A stretch of DNA of 39,703 nucleotides from a virus (lineage: Duplodnaviria; Caudoviricetes): IMG/VR virus record IMGVR_UViG_3300020045_009352, positions 1 through 39,703 of that record; one strand, written 5' to 3'. The position numbers and the translations under genes were made by a program. Below the pieces are notes generated by a model that was not told where the DNA came from, made no database searches, and saw only the letters and a list, made by a program, of their open reading frames with translations. Within the stretch, counting starts at the first letter, position 1; the number at the start of each line of letters is the position of its first letter. This document shows positions 16,883-31,964 of the stretch, piece by piece.

Positions 16883-17476
16883 TTACAATGTGAACCTGTA
16901 ACCAAGTCCCATTTGGTAGAATCTATTTTTGATGGCTGTTTTGGCTTCTGATTTTCCCACATCATTTAAATTAGCCAGCCCTATTAAATACCTGGTTTCA
17001 AAAAACAGGCCTTTATAAATATTCACTTCTATACCTATGGCAACACCGTAATCAAATGACTTCACGCTGCTTTTATAATCATATTCTTTATTGTCGTATT
17101 CATACTTAGCGCTCGATATACGCCCGGCATAGCCACCGGCTTTTAGCGTTACATACTCGGTAGCGTAATATTTACCAAATAGAACTAAGTTAACAGTGTT
17201 CTTAAAATTAAGCTGGGCCTGTTTATTAAAGCCGGTTGCTGTTATGTCATTTTCAGAACCGCCATTTGTTAAGTGTAATTCGCCTTCAGCTCCAAAGCTC
17301 CCCATCTTATATTCAAGCCCTACACCTGCGTAGTAAGAAGTTTTGCCTGATGGCTCATATAATTTTGAGCTACCAAAGTGATTGTCATTAAACGATAATC
17401 CACCTTTAGCTGTTAGGTATTTTTGGGCGTGGGAGTTTAAAGTGATTAATAAAAGTAATATGGTAATTTTTTTCAT
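16883..17476 (-). CDS. Outer-membrane beta-barrel protein (porin-family/OMP_b-brl-like)
   Basis: Signal peptide ending HA|Q, alternating amphipathic strands, FDYGVAIG and ETRYLIGL motifs, C-terminal LGYRF beta-signal. Confidence 0.85.
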   Translation of the reverse strand: MKKITILLLLITLNSHAQKYLTAKGGLSFNDNHFGSSKLYEPSGKTSYYAGVGLEYKMGSFGAEGELHLTNGGSENDITATGFNKQAQLNFKNTVNLVLFGKYYATEYVTLKAGGYAGRISSAKYEYDNKEYDYKSSVKSFDYGVAIGIEVNIYKGLFFETRYLIGLANLNDVGKSEAKTAIKNRFYQMGLGYRFTL

Positions 17477-24373: not shown

Positions 24374-25091
24374 CAACAGCCTTGTTGAGACAAAAACCAA
24401 GCTTACTGATGATTTATTCCGGTTGATGCAGGTAAGGGACAAAAACAAAGACATGGCTAAAGACTGGCTGCTTTACCTAACCACCTCTAAATTTTGCAAG
24501 CTAACACCCGGAGAAGTCTATAAAGCCTTTCAGATGGCTGTATCAGGCGATTTAAGAAAAGAAAACGGAGAGATGATATACTTTACTCACGAGTTAAGCA
24601 TTATCGCAACAGGGATGGTCTTAGATGCTTATTTGAAATATAAAAATGATGATGCTGTTTACCAGCTTGCGAAAGATAAATTAAAGCAATTAGCATTGCC
24701 GGATATTTCAGAACCATCAGATGAGCAAAAGAAAACAATCCGGGAAGGTTTTTTGAAAGTAATATATCAGGAAATAAAAACAGATGGTTACAGCCACGGA
24801 GCGCACCTCCTGTTTTTAGAACTTGAAAAATCAGGCAAATTGATAATTTCTATCGAAGATAAAAAAAAGCTATATGCAGAGCAGTTGAAAATTTATATCC
24901 CAAACGAGCAGGAAGATATAAAATCGAAAAGATCTCTTAGTACAAAACATCTTCTTAAAGAATTCAGGGATAAAATAAATTCAGGTAAGTCTATTGTGCA
25001 AGTTGTAAATAAGTGCCGGAGCATAAGCGTATGTAATTACTTGAAAGATTTTGTTAGCGATTTTGAAACATTTAATAAAGAAATCCAATGA
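24237..25091 (+). CDS. Replication-associated protein (helicase-loader position)
   Basis: Directly follows and overlaps the initiator; start uncertain (24237 or a later ATG). Confidence 0.55.
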   Translation: MENHHQIATQHQIPVRVTGLQVSIPESLYKSLPTILQMEISQANISNSLVETKTKLTDDLFRLMQVRDKNKDMAKDWLLYLTTSKFCKLTPGEVYKAFQMAVSGDLRKENGEMIYFTHELSIIATGMVLDAYLKYKNDDAVYQLAKDKLKQLALPDISEPSDEQKKTIREGFLKVIYQEIKTDGYSHGAHLLFLELEKSGKLIISIEDKKKLYAEQLKIYIPNEQEDIKSKRSLSTKHLLKEFRDKINSGKSIVQVVNKCRSISVCNYLKDFVSDFETFNKEIQ

Positions 25092-25420
25092 AAGAAGTCG
25101 TTAAAATCGTTGCTGAATACTACAAACTACCAGTGTTTGCGATTTATCAAACTACCCGGGCCCGGCAAATAGTATCAGCAAGGAAAGTAGCCATGTACCT
25201 GATACGCGAAAATTCAAAGCTGCCTTTTGCCGACATAGGGAAGTTCTTTGAAAAAGACCATGCTACAGTTATTCACGCATGTAATTCTGTAAAAGCGCAT
25301 AGCGAGGTTTACCCTGCTTTTGCTTCTGATATAAGTTTCCTGCTTGAATATACTGCTACTGTAAAGTTTGAGACACCATGCCACCTAATGCACTTTAGAC
25401 CACAATTTAATATAAAATAA
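25088..25420 (+). CDS. Stand-alone DnaA domain IV (Bac_DnaA_C) HTH protein
   Basis: R.RQIV.ARKVAMYL.RE...F.DIG.FF.KDHATVIHA signature. Confidence 0.85.
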   Translation: MKEVVKIVAEYYKLPVFAIYQTTRARQIVSARKVAMYLIRENSKLPFADIGKFFEKDHATVIHACNSVKAHSEVYPAFASDISFLLEYTATVKFETPCHLMHFRPQFNIK

Positions 25421-25421
25421 A

Positions 25422-25631
25422 ATGAGTTTAGATAAAACAAAAGCTTTCTTAGAGAAAGCTATCGAAGGACTTCAGGATGAAATTAACCAACTTGAAAAAA
25501 CAAACTTCATACTCGATGGCGCTCATGCCAATATCCGCACGCAAACAGCAATCGAAGATTTATTCGACAACCTGGATTACATCGCGATAGAAGATTTAGA
25601 AACTTTTATAAACACCCACAAGAAAATATGA
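25422..25631 (+). CDS. Hypothetical protein
   Basis: Coupled ORF. Confidence 0.65.
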   Translation: MSLDKTKAFLEKAIEGLQDEINQLEKTNFILDGAHANIRTQTAIEDLFDNLDYIAIEDLETFINTHKKI

Positions 25632-26740
25632 AATTAACCATCAGCAGTAAATCATTACTCAAAGCATTGCAAACAGTAGGGAGTGTTGTAAACTACAGCC
25701 ATAGCATGCCAATACTTCAAAGCTTTAGTTTTGAGATTACAGACAAATTAAGGATAACCGCTACCGACCTTGATACTACACTATCCTGTGTAATTGACGC
25801 AGAAGGAGAAGGCTCGGTTTGTATCCCTGCAAAACTAATAATTGACACTTTAAAAGCTTTACCTGAACAGCCTATTGAATTATCATCAACAGGATCTGTT
25901 TTGCTTCTTACTGCAAAGTCAGGAAAATATAAGCTGCCATGTTCTGATTTTTCAGAGTTCCCGAAGCCGGTTGAAATAAAAGAACCGTCTGTTATTTCGC
26001 TACCTGCCGAGGTATTATCGGAAGGGTTAAATAAAACTGCGTTCGCTACATCTACCGATGAGTTGCGCCCTATTATGTGTGGGGTACTGTTCAGGGTGGC
26101 TAATAATGGATTAACCTTTGCTGCTACAGACGGACATAAGGTAAGTGAATATAAGAGAACTGATATTCAAAATAGTGAAGATAAAGATTTTGTAATACAT
26201 AAAAAATCAATCAACATTATTAAAAATATGATTGTACAAGGAGATTTAAAAATAGAATACAACTCTATTAATGCTAAATTTATTTTTGATAATTGTGAGT
26301 TCACTACAAGATTATTAGAAGGGAAGTATTTGAACTACGAAGCTGTTATCCCGAAGGATAACCCTATAAAAATTATTGTTTCTAAAAATGATATTATCGG
26401 TAGTTTTAAAAGGGTTGGCATCTTCTCTAACTCAAAAACAAGCGAAATAGCTTTAGATATAACACCCGGCAACATGAATATAAAATCTACTGATTTTGAT
26501 TTCTCTACCGATGCCGAAGAGAATATCGCTATAGATTTCAACGGCGAGCCAATTAGAATAGGCTTTAACCACAAGTTTTTTACAGAGGCGGTTAACAGTA
26601 TGAGCTGCGATGAAATTATAATTGAATTATCAGTACCAAACAGAGCGGCTGTAATTTCTCAAGCAGATGGGCTTGATGAACATGAATCTGTTTTGGTTTT
26701 AGTGATGCCTATGATGCTTACACCAATTAAGCTACAATAA
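25628..26740 (+). CDS. dnaN: DNA polymerase III beta sliding clamp
   Basis: 370 aa with PIL, ATDL, FA.S.DE.RP..GV, ATDGH, LLEGKY.NYE.VIP, IGFN and LVMP motifs. Confidence 0.95.
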   Translation: MKLTISSKSLLKALQTVGSVVNYSHSMPILQSFSFEITDKLRITATDLDTTLSCVIDAEGEGSVCIPAKLIIDTLKALPEQPIELSSTGSVLLLTAKSGKYKLPCSDFSEFPKPVEIKEPSVISLPAEVLSEGLNKTAFATSTDELRPIMCGVLFRVANNGLTFAATDGHKVSEYKRTDIQNSEDKDFVIHKKSINIIKNMIVQGDLKIEYNSINAKFIFDNCEFTTRLLEGKYLNYEAVIPKDNPIKIIVSKNDIIGSFKRVGIFSNSKTSEIALDITPGNMNIKSTDFDFSTDAEENIAIDFNGEPIRIGFNHKFFTEAVNSMSCDEIIIELSVPNRAAVISQADGLDEHESVLVLVMPMMLTPIKLQ

Positions 26741-26770
26741 TATTTGACCTTCGGGAATACCAATTTAAAA

Positions 26771-29305
26771 ATGGTACCTTATAATGAATTTTTAGAAAGC
26801 AAAATACTCGAAGTAAAAAACACAGGATTCGAGTATAATAATTTCCACGATAATACTTTTCCACACCAAAGAGACACCTGCCAATGGGCGCTATATGGTG
26901 GCACCAGGGCGATATTTTGCAGCTTCGGATTAGGCAAGACAGTTATCCAATTAGAGATAGCTAAAGCAGTTGTAGAACGTACTGGTAAGCCTTTCTTAAT
27001 CGGGCTGCCTTTAGGTGTAGTTCAGGAGTTCAAAGATGATGCTAAAACTATTTTAGGCTTAGATGTTTACTACGTTAGAGACATGGAGGAGGCTCACAGT
27101 ATTGTAATTGAAAGAGGGTACAATAACTTTATTTATCCGGGAATATTTCTTTCAAATTACGACAGGATACGCGAAGGTGCTTTTGATTTATCATTCTTTG
27201 GAGGTATATCTTTTGATGAGGGAGATGCTATCCGTAACCGCGAAACAAAAACCAGTGAGTATATAATTACCGAGGCTTCAAAAGTGCCATACAGGTTTAT
27301 AGCTACCGCAACCCCCGCGCCAAACGAATTTACGGAAATACTTAACTATGCTGAATTTTTAGGCATTTGCGACCGCGGCCAGGCGTTAACGCGCTTCTTT
27401 CAGAGAGATAGCACAACAGCCGGTAACCTCACTATTTACCCGCACAAGGAAAAAGAGTTTTGGATATGGGTGCGCAGCTGGGCAATCTTCATAGAGTACC
27501 CATCTGATCTTGGTTATAGTGATGAAGGCTACCGTATGCCCGACCTGCAGGTGCATTACCACGAAGTAAATGTAAACGACCGCGCTGTTAAAGTTGATAG
27601 GGATGGGAATTATAAAATGTTTACCGATGCATCTAAAAGCCTAAGTGAAGGCGCAAGGGAGAAACGTGAAAGCCTTGCCGCTCGTGTTGAAAAATCAGTC
27701 GAGCTTGCGTTATCTGAACCGGAAAAGCATTTTATACTTTGGCATGATCTCGAAGATGAGCGAAAGTATCTCGAAGCTTTATTGCCAAAAGAGAAAACGG
27801 TATCAGTTTTTGGCACTCAGAAGCAGGAGGTAAAAGAGCAATACCTTAATGAGTTTAAATATGGACAGTTCCAATACTTAGCAACAAAACCATCTATTGC
27901 CGGGGCCGGTTGCAACTTTCAAAAGTATTGCAGTGATGCTATTTTCGTAGGTATAGGTTATAAGTTTAAAGACTTTATCCAGGCTATACACAGGATATTG
28001 AGGTTTAGGCAGGCCAACCAGGTAAATATACACCTTGTGTACACTGATGCCGAAAGGGACATTCTTAAAAAGCTTGAAATAAAATGGTCTAACCATAAAA
28101 AAATGATAGCCGAAATGACTGCCTTAATGAAGGAGTATGGCCTTGACCACCGCGCCCAGATAGAGCAGTTAAAGAGAACAATGGCTATTGAGCGCAAAGT
28201 ATACTGCAACGACGATATAAATTTGATTCACAACGACTGTGTAGCAGAGGTTCAGACAATGCCGGATGATTCTATTGAAATGATCCTTACCTCTATCCCG
28301 TTCAGTGACCAGTACGAATATTGCGAAAGCTATAGGGATTTCGGGCATAACGATGGTAATACCGGATTCTTTAAGCAAATGGATTATTTAGTTCCGGAAC
28401 TATTAAGGATAACACAACCGGGGCGTATCGCTGCAATCCATGTAAAAAACAGGATACAGTTTAGTTACCAAAACGGCGTGGGCTTCTCGTCTATAATAGA
28501 TTTCCGAGGCTTGACTACCCAATCATTCATTAAGCACGGCTGGCACCTGTTAGGGGAGCATTACATCACTACCGATGTAGTGCGCGAAAACAATCAAACC
28601 TACAGGCTGGGTTACACCGAGAACAGTAAAGACAGCTCTAAAATGGGGTGTGGTTCGCCGGAGTATCTTTTAATTTTCCGTAAGGCACCAACGGATACGT
28701 CCAACTCATACGCCGACGTTCGCGTGCAAAAAGATAAAGCAGCTTACACTTTAGGCCAATGGCAAATGGATGCTCATAGCTTATGGCGAAGCAACGGCAA
28801 CCGCATGCTTACCCCTGCTGAATTACGCAGTATGGATATGAGCCAGATATCTAAATGGTGGAAAGACTATGTTACAAACAATCCTTACAGCTTTGAAGAT
28901 CATGTAAACCTTTGCGACCAGCTTTCAAGCATCAAGAAGCTACCGACTACCTTCATGCTGCTAAGCCCGTGGACACATACACAAAACGATTTTGTTTGGG
29001 ATGATATAAGCAGGATGCATACACTAAACACTATGCAAGCCAATAAGAAAAAAGAAAAGCATGTTTGCCCATTGCAGTTTGATATTGTTGACAGAGCTAT
29101 AACGCGCTACTCTAACCCCGGCGAATTGATATATGATCCTTTCGGCGGTTTAGGGACCGTACCGCTTAGAGCTGTGAAGTTAGGCCGCAAAGGCATGAGT
29201 ACCGAGCTAAACGAAATGTACTGGAATGATAGCGTTGAGTATGCTAAAGCTATGGAGCATGACAAAAAGCAGCCGAACCTTTTTGATTTAATAGATGTAG
29301 CATGA
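26771..29305 (+). CDS. SNF2-like helicase fused to an amino (N4-C/N6-A) DNA methyltransferase
   Basis: GLGKT, FDEG, TATPAPN and QAIHR..RF helicase motifs; then TSIPF (motif IV) before DPFGGLGT (motif I), i.e. beta-class order; C-terminal KQPNLF. Confidence 0.88.
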   Translation: MVPYNEFLESKILEVKNTGFEYNNFHDNTFPHQRDTCQWALYGGTRAIFCSFGLGKTVIQLEIAKAVVERTGKPFLIGLPLGVVQEFKDDAKTILGLDVYYVRDMEEAHSIVIERGYNNFIYPGIFLSNYDRIREGAFDLSFFGGISFDEGDAIRNRETKTSEYIITEASKVPYRFIATATPAPNEFTEILNYAEFLGICDRGQALTRFFQRDSTTAGNLTIYPHKEKEFWIWVRSWAIFIEYPSDLGYSDEGYRMPDLQVHYHEVNVNDRAVKVDRDGNYKMFTDASKSLSEGAREKRESLAARVEKSVELALSEPEKHFILWHDLEDERKYLEALLPKEKTVSVFGTQKQEVKEQYLNEFKYGQFQYLATKPSIAGAGCNFQKYCSDAIFVGIGYKFKDFIQAIHRILRFRQANQVNIHLVYTDAERDILKKLEIKWSNHKKMIAEMTALMKEYGLDHRAQIEQLKRTMAIERKVYCNDDINLIHNDCVAEVQTMPDDSIEMILTSIPFSDQYEYCESYRDFGHNDGNTGFFKQMDYLVPELLRITQPGRIAAIHVKNRIQFSYQNGVGFSSIIDFRGLTTQSFIKHGWHLLGEHYITTDVVRENNQTYRLGYTENSKDSSKMGCGSPEYLLIFRKAPTDTSNSYADVRVQKDKAAYTLGQWQMDAHSLWRSNGNRMLTPAELRSMDMSQISKWWKDYVTNNPYSFEDHVNLCDQLSSIKKLPTTFMLLSPWTHTQNDFVWDDISRMHTLNTMQANKKKEKHVCPLQFDIVDRAITRYSNPGELIYDPFGGLGTVPLRAVKLGRKGMSTELNEMYWNDSVEYAKAMEHDKKQPNLFDLIDVA

Positions 29306-29655
29306 CACCTAAGCAAGAAGGATTAAAGCGCGTTCGTAAAAACAATACTGTAGACTACGAAAAGCTACTTGCTTTCGCCAAACAATGGGTAAAGCAAAAG
29401 ATGTACCCTTTCACATCAGAAGATTTAAAACTGGCATACGAAGCAGTTAACACCCCGCCCCGGCAACCAAACATATACGGGGCGGCTGTTAATGCCTTAG
29501 CCTGTAAACATCTTATTTATGAAAGCGGAACTGCGAGGGCTAAGCTTAAAGCGGCCCATGGCAGGTTAATATTAAAATGGATAAGCCACGAATACAGGCT
29601 TGCCCAATCTGAAAAACCAAAGAACCAAAAGCAAATTAACCTGTTTGATTTATGA
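29302..29655 (+). CDS. Small basic protein with C-terminal KQINLF
   Basis: Coupled between the two MTase genes; possibly winged-helix-like. Confidence 0.7.
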   Translation: MTPKQEGLKRVRKNNTVDYEKLLAFAKQWVKQKMYPFTSEDLKLAYEAVNTPPRQPNIYGAAVNALACKHLIYESGTARAKLKAAHGRLILKWISHEYRLAQSEKPKNQKQINLFDL

Positions 29656-30665
29656 AGCACATATCATTATTTTCCGGCATAGGCGGCTTTGACCTCGCAG
29701 CCGAATGGATGGGATGGGAGAATGTTGCTCATTGCGAATGGAACCCATTTGGTCAACGAATATTAAAATACTACTGGCCTAAATCAATATCATACCATGA
29801 CATTACAAAAACAGATTTCACTATTCACAGAGGGCATGTTGACATCGTTACAGGAGGATTCCCCTGCCAGCCTTACAGCGTTGCAGGAAAACGAAAAGGA
29901 AAAGAAGATGAGCGTCACCTGTGGCCCGAAATGCTTAGAGCAATTCGCGAGATTCAACCGCGCTGGGTTGTGGGAGAAAACGTTCGCGGGATTATTAATT
30001 GGGATGCCGGGGTGGTATTCGACGAGGTGCAGGCTGACCTGGAAGCTGAGGGCTACAAAATACTCCCGTTTTTACTTCCAGCTGCAAGTGTCAACGCTCC
30101 ACACGAACGATACAGAACGTGGTTTGTTGCTTTCAACCCCAAGTTCAAATCCGATGGGGAATGTAACGATGGAACGAGCTCAGGAAATGAATTGGAAATG
30201 GCTGGGGACTTCTTTGGTACGACCGGATGGCAGCAAAGTACAGACAACCCTCATACATCAGATAACGGCGGGTTTACTGCTAACACCTACGACAAGGGAG
30301 GAAGTTCAGGACTTGGAGAAGTTCCAAAAGAGAATGGAGAAATACCCGAATGGAACAAAGATGCCGAACCTTGCTACTCAAGTGATAGGGATGTTGCCAA
30401 CACCTCAAGCATACGACAGCCCGGAGAAGAATACAGGCAAGAGGAATCAGGATGGACTTCAAAAGAGAGCGTTCGAGATGACTGGCAAAACTTCCCAACT
30501 CAATCCCCAGTTCGTTATGGAGATGATGGGTTTTCCTCCCAATTGGACGGAATTACCTTTCCTAAATGGAGGAACGAATCAATCAAAGCCGGGGGCAACG
30601 CTGTAGTTCCCCAAGTTGTTTACCAAATTTTTAAAGCTATAGAAAATTATGAATATAGAAAGTGA
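29652..30665 (+). CDS. C5 cytosine DNA methyltransferase, alpha-type polypeptide
   Basis: Motifs I SLFSGIGG, IV GGFPCQ, VI ENV, VIII HERYR.W and X GNAVVPQ; no motif IX in this frame. Confidence 0.92.
   Translation: MKHISLFSGIGGFDLAAEWMGWENVAHCEWNPFGQRILKYYWPKSISYHDITKTDFTIHRGHVDIVTGGFPCQPYSVAGKRKGKEDERHLWPEMLRAIREIQPRWVVGENVRGIINWDAGVVFDEVQADLEAEGYKILPFLLPAASVNAPHERYRTWFVAFNPKFKSDGECNDGTSSGNELEMAGDFFGTTGWQQSTDNPHTSDNGGFTANTYDKGGSSGLGEVPKENGEIPEWNKDAEPCYSSDRDVANTSSIRQPGEEYRQEESGWTSKESVRDDWQNFPTQSPVRYGDDGFSSQLDGITFPKWRNESIKAGGNAVVPQVVYQIFKAIENYEYRK
29797..30606 (+). CDS. Nested +1-frame polypeptide: C5-MTase beta-type subunit (TRD-like repeats + motif IX)
   Basis: 269 codons open inside the MTase gene; ends LNPQFVMEMMGFPPNWT (motif IX-like); three L..TP units; N-terminal KQISLF. 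Confidence 0.8.
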   Translation: MTLQKQISLFTEGMLTSLQEDSPASLTALQENEKEKKMSVTCGPKCLEQFARFNRAGLWEKTFAGLLIGMPGWYSTRCRLTWKLRATKYSRFYFQLQVSTLHTNDTERGLLLSTPSSNPMGNVTMERAQEMNWKWLGTSLVRPDGSKVQTTLIHQITAGLLLTPTTREEVQDLEKFQKRMEKYPNGTKMPNLATQVIGMLPTPQAYDSPEKNTGKRNQDGLQKRAFEMTGKTSQLNPQFVMEMMGFPPNWTELPFLNGGTNQSKPGATL

Positions 30666-30909
30666 AATTACAAAACAAGGGTTTCAGATTATAAATGTTG
30701 GAGTGCCTGAAATGCTTAAGCTGGGAGGTCTATGCATATGCGATAGCTGCAATAATGCAATGTTTAAAGGCACATTCATTGGTGCGTTGAATAGGGTTTA
30801 TTGTCCGGAATGTTATACTGACTGGCACGAAAACGCCACTTATTACGAAGAGGATAAACCTTACGAAACAAGAATAATCAACTCAACTTTAAAAAAACTA
30901 AAACCATGA
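30649..30909 (+). CDS. Small Zn-finger protein
   Basis: CDSC...CPEC. Confidence 0.7.
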   Translation: MNIESEITKQGFQIINVGVPEMLKLGGLCICDSCNNAMFKGTFIGALNRVYCPECYTDWHENATYYEEDKPYETRIINSTLKKLKP

Positions 30910-31964
30910 TAAATTTATTTAACGCACAATTTAACACTGCTTCCATCCATAAAGTAGGAAACAAAAGCCGGGGCGAAAATCTATTCATTGCAGCATCGGA
31001 ATACCGCCTTGATGACGAGATAACCCCGCTGCTAAAAGAATACTTCTTAAAGCCATTCAGGGATAAAGAGGAAAACTATTTCCAGTTTTACCACGATGTA
31101 CATCTTGACTACAACGAAATGTATTCGCTTGCAAAATCTGTATTTAAAGCACAAGGCGAAAACATGCATCGAAAGTCTGAGAACATTGCCAGGCATCTGT
31201 ATGGCCAGTCCAACCACCCACACATAAAAGCCGGGGAGCTTTATGTTGTCTACATGAAAAACGTTACCATAGATAACAACGTAGTTGATGCTATCGGAAT
31301 TTTCAAATCAGAAATAAAGTCAGACTTTCTGCAATTCAAGCAGAATGATAACATCCTGCTGCCAAAGCTACAGCAAGGCATCAACTTGGATAAGCTGGAC
31401 AAAGGCGCAATAATCTTCAACTATAAAGCTGATGAGGGCTACAAGATCCTTTGTGTTGACCAAAACCGTTACGATGCCCGATACTGGCTTGAACACTTCT
31501 TAGGTGTGGATTTGCTCCATGATGAGAACTTCGTTACAAAGAAGTACCTTAAAATGGTTCAGGACTTTGCAAAGGATGTAGTACTGCCTGCCGAGGATAA
31601 AAAGGAAGAAGTAATGTTTATGAACCGGTCTGTTAACTACTTTGCCAAGAACGACGAGTTTGAAGAAACTGCTTTTCTTAACGAAGTACTTGATAACCCA
31701 GACCTAATACCGGAGTTTAAAAACTATAAAACAGAAAAGGCCGGTAAGTACTCAATCGAAGATGTAAGCAATTTCCCTATCTCTAACAGCGCGGTAACCG
31801 ATGCCCGAAAAAAGATTAAATCGGTTATAAATCTGGATACTAATATACAAATAAAACTTGACTTTATCAACCCTGAAAGCGCGGAAAAGTTCATTGAAAA
31901 AGGCTGGGACGAGGAGAAACAAATGTATTATTACCTGTGTTATTTTAATAAGGAAGCGAAGTAA
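30906..31964 (+). CDS. Nucleoid-associated protein (NA-37/YejK-like)
   Basis: IHKVGNK, HP.IK.GELY, AIGIFKSE, KLDKGAII and YW...FL motifs, resembling the Bacteroidota chromosomal gene. Confidence 0.82.
   Translation: MINLFNAQFNTASIHKVGNKSRGENLFIAASEYRLDDEITPLLKEYFLKPFRDKEENYFQFYHDVHLDYNEMYSLAKSVFKAQGENMHRKSENIARHLYGQSNHPHIKAGELYVVYMKNVTIDNNVVDAIGIFKSEIKSDFLQFKQNDNILLPKLQQGINLDKLDKGAIIFNYKADEGYKILCVDQNRYDARYWLEHFLGVDLLHDENFVTKKYLKMVQDFAKDVVLPAEDKKEEVMFMNRSVNYFAKNDEFEETAFLNEVLDNPDLIPEFKNYKTEKAGKYSIEDVSNFPISNSAVTDARKKIKSVINLDTNIQIKLDFINPESAEKFIEKGWDEEKQMYYYLCYFNKEAK

Follow-up and report, generated by a model that had tools for sequence, protein, structure and literature searches.

In bacteria, clients of the beta sliding clamp, transposases included, share a short consensus, QL[SD]LF or QxxL(x)F, which in the published account lies near the ends of DNA-acting proteins of a mobile element (PMC5371812). 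In eukaryotes, the sliding clamp PCNA holds the DNA methyltransferase DNMT1 on newly copied DNA (PMC9690074). Here we analyse a locus that recalls both cases, in the Caudoviricetes record IMGVR_UViG_3300020045_009352 (39,703 nucleotides; "the window" denotes this whole stretch). At positions 25,628 to 30,665, a phage gene for the beta clamp, dnaN, is followed on the same strand by genes for three proteins that each carry a clamp-motif-like peptide, hereafter a tag, close to one end: a fusion of an SNF2-type ATPase with an amino-methyltransferase, a 117-residue predicted winged-helix protein, and the nested second chain of a two-chain C5-cytosine methyltransferase. The consensus and its place near protein ends are those of the bacterial clients, whereas the carriers here are methyltransferase chains, as putative clients, and the fusion family mostly has a Q-less xP[TS]LFD. 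The likeness to DNMT1 and PCNA would lie in a clamp that keeps a methyltransferase on new DNA; the locus differs in its bacterial clamp and motif, in its orphan phage enzymes, and in a presumed role against restriction rather than in epigenetic maintenance.

Three further systems provide parts of the picture. The C and Mor activators of phage Mu are likewise small phage DNA-binding proteins with a clamp motif and a reliance on the host replisome (bioRxiv 10.1101/2025.01.04.631326); their motif is N-terminal and Mu is without a clamp gene, whereas the motif of the 117-residue protein is C-terminal and its model is a winged helix. M.EcoHK31I shows the same split of a C5 methyltransferase, with motifs I-VIII and X on the large chain and motif IX on the second (PMC3404938). 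Its target-recognition domain has been predicted to lie in the large chain, whereas in the window the nested chain has the variable LPTP repeats in addition to its clamp-type tag. In Arthrobacter phage cluster AY, a phage DnaN (phrog_947) and a "DNA helicase/methylase" are both annotated and both core, being two of the nine fully conserved phams (PMC13760350); the accessible part of that description draws no functional link between them and mentions no tail motif. Within the literature searched, mostly without subscription journals and bioRxiv supplements, no paper surfaced that connects DNA methyltransferases of phages or bacteria with the beta clamp. Each part of the locus is of a known kind: DnaN, clamp-motif clients, EcoHK31I-type enzymes and phage helicase/methylases. 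The tags themselves are a real, selected and testable feature, in a system less closed than a preliminary description of the locus had proposed.

Three tagged proteins behind a phage clamp gene

The preliminary description had pointed to three K-Q-x-[NS]-L-F peptides after dnaN, and all three were found, with Q codons at 29270 (QPNLF), 29632 (QINLF) and 29812 (QISLF) and a K before each. Every one of them satisfies the QxxL(x)F consensus near a terminus. Among the 49 window proteins (12,389 residues), the strict pattern Q[LIMVPT][STDNEGA][LMI]F matched only three times, at exactly these tags, and the loose pattern Q..[LMI]F six times. About 0.16 terminal QxxLF peptides would be expected by chance, and the probability of three or more is about 5e-4, a rough and post hoc figure. 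The peptides had been called terminal, and they are indeed close to the ends, but six residues follow the tag on the fusion and two follow that on the 117-residue protein, and the nested tag begins at residue 6. Of the carriers, the fusion and the nested C5 chain are methyltransferase chains; the 117-residue protein is not a methyltransferase.

The clamp gene (dnaN, 25628..26740, plus strand) encodes a full-length protein of 370 residues, as had been claimed, with all three Pfam beta-clamp domains (PF00712, PF02767, PF02768) and a TIGR00663 score of 232.7 bits against a cut-off of 137.65. Its nearest relatives in a homologue search are a small group of four proteins at 60-75% identity, the closest being in a sister phage, and its identity to Flavobacteriaceae host clamps is 42-47%. 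A viral scan with the single dnaN sequence gave no relative; scans with alignments were required. A metagenome scan returned the sister phage and 50 other loci, assumed to be mostly chromosomal clamps, a subset of which served only as rows of the tree and alignment.

The fusion (844 residues; 26771..29305, plus strand) joins an SNF2/SWI2-type ATPase to an N4/N6 amino-methyltransferase, with matches to PF01555, weakly to PF00176, and to phrog_16 and phrog_67. It has Walker A and B motifs, motif III, methyltransferase motifs IV and I, and a Snf2-like fold; GLGKT stands at residue 53, DEG at 149, TATP at 179, TSIPF at 507 and DPFGG at 789. Its AlphaFold2 (AF2) model has a mean predicted local distance difference test score (pLDDT) of 82, and the best Foldseek matches were the Snf2-family motors Mot1, Chd1 and ISWI. 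Motif IV reads SIPF, which we take to lean towards an N4-methylcytosine product.

The QPNLF tag of the fusion (29270..29284, plus strand) corresponds to a family consensus [MVA]P[TS]LFD. Three scans gave 178 loci with fusion relatives, hence 174 full-length proteins and 139 clusters at 85% identity. Conservation in homologues had been named beforehand as a test that could refute the proposal, and an LF-type tail was found in 137 of the 139 clusters, across many phyla: 123 of the form xPxLF, 10 with a canonical Q, and 4 others. Among the canonical tails are QISLF, QITLF and QKSLF, which lack the usual P.

The 117-residue protein (29302..29655, plus strand; phrog_12515) was modelled by AF2 with a mean pLDDT of 84, falling to 54-70 in its low-confidence C-terminal tail. 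The model gave generic winged-helix matches (Z 7-8) and, with Foldseek, no PDB match at E<=0.001; neither a Pfam match nor a match to the Mor family was found. Its QINLF motif occupies 29632..29646 (plus strand), two residues before the stop. Most of 19 aligned family members end in QINLF, QVSLF, QISIF or a QTLNLF-like peptide, and a few deviate. The helix-turn-helix gene between the fusion and the clamp of Arthrobacter phage Persistence was considered as a member and rejected, as it does not belong to the same family.

A hidden second chain of the C5 methyltransferase

The catalytic, or alpha, chain of the C5-cytosine methyltransferase (29652..30665, plus strand; PF00145, M.HhaI alignment and profile mapping) carries motifs I-VIII within residues 2-162, motif X within residues 306-333, and no clamp motif. 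Nested in its +1 frame is a beta chain of 269 residues (29797..30606, plus strand; phrog_1008) with an N-terminal tag, LPTP repeats and a motif IX-like segment at about 30493-30558. This segment is a weak match (hhalign probability 83%, pairwise E 1e-5), and its place in the profile, 432-452, immediately ahead of motif X, is the expected one, so that the window presents the EcoHK31I-type split. The nested partner proposed in the preliminary description was matched in all 80 related viral loci; its profile found nothing meaningful in PDB or Pfam. The LPTP-led repeats vary in number between relatives and possibly serve target recognition, maybe as swappable modules.

The nested tag, QISLF, comprises residues 6-10 of the beta chain (29812..29826, plus strand) and overlies alpha codons T54-D55-F56-T57-I58. 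Among 68 distinct nested-chain N-termini, 49 have the pentamer, 9 a hexamer-type variant and 10 neither. In a subgroup that lost the first motif, the chain begins ten codons further on, with QTQLMF, QTELIF, QTKLIF or QLTLF, and most of these later-start tags agree with the QxxL(x)F consensus in the literature (PMC5371812).

As the stretch encoding QISLF also encodes T-D-F-T-I in the alpha chain, we examined positions that are synonymous in the alpha frame, in 50 genes below 90% DNA identity (related genes, hence not independent events). The codons that spell Q, S, L and F of the tag came close to fixation: ACA in 41 of 43 cases, TTC in 38 of 50, ACT in 27 of 33 and ATT in 33 of 33, against flank usages of 0.37, 0.33, 0.26 and 0.45, respectively. 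Neighbouring alpha codons are free, I51 being divided 23/19/7 and T52 27/13/10; their saturation implies that the tag sites had time to change. Codon usage thus indicates that the nested motif and the second chain are under selection, and the notion that the motif is a mere by-product of the overlap was rejected, as free synonymous sites are nearly fixed for QxSLF.

Host clamp, phage clamp and rival readings

The tags do not need a phage clamp nearby: dnaN was present within 10 kb in only 18 of the 139 fusion clusters and was not seen in the other 121; among the 87 clusters with at least 18 kb of DNA it was near the fusion in 15. Of the 80 C5 loci one, the sister phage, had dnaN and 79 did not, many of these contigs being so short that absence there is weak evidence. 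Whole records give firmer evidence, with no clamp domain in 0 of 5: none was present in cultured phage FCOV-S1, nor in a 100%-complete provirus with the fusion. In FCOV-S1 the fusion (tail VPTLFD) is followed directly by a homologue of the 117-residue protein (tail ITLNLF). A canonical Q tail occurred in 2 of 18 clusters with dnaN and 8 of 121 without it (p=0.62), and we rejected the idea that such tails track the phage clamp. For controls, 80 loci with an O-like initiator were reduced to 78 with a complete open reading frame (ORF), 51 clusters, and 34 with at least 6 kb downstream; the 31 of these without dnaN held terminal motifs in 15 of 965 genes, and 6 of these 15 genes were methyltransferases. 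The phage clamp as the needed partner of a dedicated system, which the preliminary description had proposed, was therefore not borne out. Since the tags persist in dnaN-free loci and complete genomes, the host clamp is likely to be their default partner.

We consider it probable, with real room for doubt, that the tagged methyltransferase chains and the winged-helix protein dock on a beta clamp, probably that of the host, with the phage clamp likely an optional extra. As in the preliminary description, neither polymerase nor clamp loader was found: no such family matched among the 49 ORFs scanned (one more, past 38095 and running into the terminal repeat, was translated and stands outside the family scans), and the DNA polymerase III (Pol III) delta family PF06144 is absent from the genome. 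With an O-like initiator gene present as well, the phage DNA would be copied by Pol III and the clamp loader of the host, and this loader would presumably load the phage clamp too. Clamps left on the new duplex would recruit the SNF2-N4/N6 methyltransferase through its tail, and the two-chain C5 methyltransferase would join them through the tag on its nested chain, so that new phage DNA would be methylated soon after synthesis, probably against restriction. The winged-helix protein may, like Mu C, dock in this way to bind DNA or to control transcription. A phage that has several tagged proteins would gain from an adjacent, host-derived clamp through more supply and less competition with host clients.

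Several findings weigh against this reading. The usual fusion tail is without Q, its P is nearly invariant (128 of 137), its distance from the DPF motif is 48 residues in 136 of 137 clusters, and in the AF2 model the motif directly follows a predicted helix at a pLDDT of about 72. Such a Q-less, partly ordered tail at fixed spacing also fits an intramolecular or dimer-packing role. Moreover, terminal motifs are absent from all 42 C5-methyltransferase ORFs beside the fusion, two of which have internal ones. The peptides might then be no clamp ligands at all, the fusion tail packing against the enzyme that bears it, and the nested QISLF, which overlaps conserved alpha residues, arising from the overlapping frame. 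The rigidly spaced, Q-less and partly ordered tail keeps this explanation alive, and we regard it as improbable: the alpha-free synonymous positions are nearly fixed, lineages swap in QISLF or rebuild the motif at a new start, and the same terminal peptide occurs on unrelated folds.

The other counterpoints concern the link between the tags and dnaN. A clamp-side set was built from 41 viral loci, found through a Bacteroidota clamp alignment and reduced to 26 clusters. Scored with a pattern whose P[TS]LF part was picked after the data had been seen, terminal motifs occurred in 25 of 146 genes no more than three genes from dnaN as against 11 of 468 farther away, with a baseline of 6 of 394 genes in dnaN-free controls and 0.26% in shuffles. 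This enrichment rests on five gene families, mostly in related phages: the fusion, the 117-residue family, PcfK, phrog_14426 and a family of 60-100 residues, plus one doubtful singleton. Beyond Bacteroidota, the count of further tagged neighbours was 0 of 90 (the fusion excluded; 18 of 22 loci scored). The fusion was enriched near dnaN (9 of 26 clusters versus 3 of 31 controls, p=0.027), whereas methyltransferases of either class were not significantly so (11 of 26 versus 7 of 31, p=0.15); each set is built around a different gene, and the samples are not independent of each other. A dnaN-by-fusion table within the control set (1 of 3 versus 3 of 31, p=0.32) was uninformative. In addition, dnaN was found in 3 of the 34 control loci, one of them the sister phage, which is near its 13% rate beside the fusion. 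A DNA-modification gene within about 5 kb was lacking from six of the 11 dnaN neighbourhoods read in cultured phages; the five that had one include two picked on suspected co-occurrence.

These counts bear on a second explanation, in which the phage clamp has a role in ordinary replication or in host takeover and stands next to methyltransferases through a shared early-operon position. On this view the clamp is an extra processivity factor, or it relieves clamp titration by the tagged proteins, as the toxicity of Mu C would suggest; Mu C does titrate the clamp (bioRxiv 10.1101/2025.01.04.631326). The presence of dnaN in control early regions favours this explanation, as do the PcfK-PcfJ pair, rather than a methyltransferase, beside dnaN in 11 of 26 Bacteroidota clusters, and the primase, recombinase or lysis neighbours of dnaN in many cultured phages. 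It explains less well why tags thin out with gene distance from dnaN, and why dnaN is the third closest (median 450 bp) of 25 families recurring in at least seven fusion loci, behind only an unnamed family of 115 residues and the C5 methyltransferases. We judge it unlikely, and it is partly compatible with docking on the host clamp.

When dnaN and the fusion do occur together, they are close. In 15 of the 18 co-occurrences the two genes share a strand and lie no more than 2.1 kb apart; in 8 the distance is at most 35 bp. In Paracoccus phage Pthi1, dnaN directly precedes the fusion, and in Persistence the order is fusion, one small gene, dnaN. The clamp itself has changed. The window DnaN retains R147, T167-D-G-H170, N314 and M360-P361 in segments that we take, by analogy with E. 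coli structures, to line the client pocket, but has V172 for L and L235 for P at two otherwise nearly invariant positions. In a quick tree of 80 clamps, which carried long-branch and composition warnings, it belongs to a small diverged phage clade that drifts further in these segments, and fusion-linked clamps fall into two Bacteroidota groups, one Actinobacteria group, one Alphaproteobacteria group and several long branches. The changes may reflect altered specificity or relaxed selection. A complex prediction for phage clamp residues 1-366 with the last 33 residues of the fusion scored 0.13, against a mark of 0.32, and was counted neither way.

A third explanation, a sharper form of the one in the preliminary description, would make the phage clamp a private processivity platform for DNA modification, diverged towards its own tagged enzymes and largely apart from replication. 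The gaps of at most 35 bp, in 8 of the 18 co-occurring clusters and in Pthi1, speak for it, together with the two core phams of cluster AY (PMC13760350), the drifting pocket segments, and a dnaN right behind a 7-deazaguanine cluster in Cellulophaga phage phi38:2. Yet the tags are alike with and without a phage dnaN and are kept in complete genomes that lack one, the full four-gene order was seen only in the window and one sister phage, and no clamp loader was matched in the phage genome; we hold this explanation to be rather unlikely. A broader conjecture, that temperate phages of several phyla repeatedly captured the host clamp gene as a private, host-loaded platform taking tagged DNA-modifying enzymes along new phage DNA, a bacterial counterpart to DNMT1 and PCNA whose pocket drifts to the phage's own tags, seems to us unlikely but not strikingly so. 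Docking of the tags on a clamp, by default the host's, remains the reading that we prefer.

Several neighbours of phage dnaN genes deserve record in their own right. The PcfK-PcfJ pair is mostly directly upstream of dnaN (L326:8264-11119, L330:8117-11113, L333:8241-11113 and others), and most of the PcfK proteins have a C-terminal peptide resembling a clamp motif, for example QIDLF or QSELF. Of two small families beside dnaN, phrog_14426 has a C-terminal QLTLF or QLSLF, and the other has an N-terminal QLNLF (L326:11121-11351, L334:9488-9766). The cluster before dnaN in phi38:2 (L105:643-6086) comprises QueC, D, E, F and a tRNA-ribosyltransferase-like gene. Another phage dnaN has a Prok-E2_D and ThiF pair immediately upstream (L343:7468-11116).

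The phage and the possible reach of clamp-coupled methylation

The 39,703-base record is a complete virus genome with direct terminal repeats. Family scans of its 49 ORFs identified temperate-phage genes for an integrase, a CI-like repressor, YqaJ, NinB, a NinG-like protein, the O-like initiator, terminase, portal and lysis proteins. As the window DnaN is nearest, after its own small group, to Flavobacteriaceae host clamps, the host is probably a flavobacterium. CTAG is absent from the genome, against about 82 sites expected, and GATC stands at 0.36 of expectation; the sister phage has one CTAG where 47 would be expected in 20 kb. Such a depletion suggests strong restriction pressure at CTAG. 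A scan for promoters and terminators found sites no more numerous than in shuffles.

Other genes of the window lie outside the tagged set. A stand-alone DnaA C-terminal DNA-binding domain is encoded at 25088-25420, two genes before dnaN, and homologues of it are present in 17 of the 80 C5 loci. Downstream of the methyltransferases is a gene for the nucleoid-associated protein NA37 (30906-31964), found likewise in loci L001 and L002. An outer-membrane beta-barrel gene (16883-17476, minus strand) between the integrase and the repressor is a possible lysogenic-conversion or superinfection-exclusion gene.

The tags bear on two questions: how phage methylation outpaces restriction on fast-copied DNA, and why phages without a polymerase carry dnaN. 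One testable answer to both lies in the conserved clamp tag that a cross-phylum SNF2-methyltransferase family and a hidden C5 chain have in common. Nature provides a contrast in cluster AY, where fusion and clamp are both core, and FCOV-S1, which has a tagged fusion and the winged-helix gene but no clamp. If docking on the clamp proves true, clamp-coupled methylation would extend from eukaryotes to bacteria and their phages.

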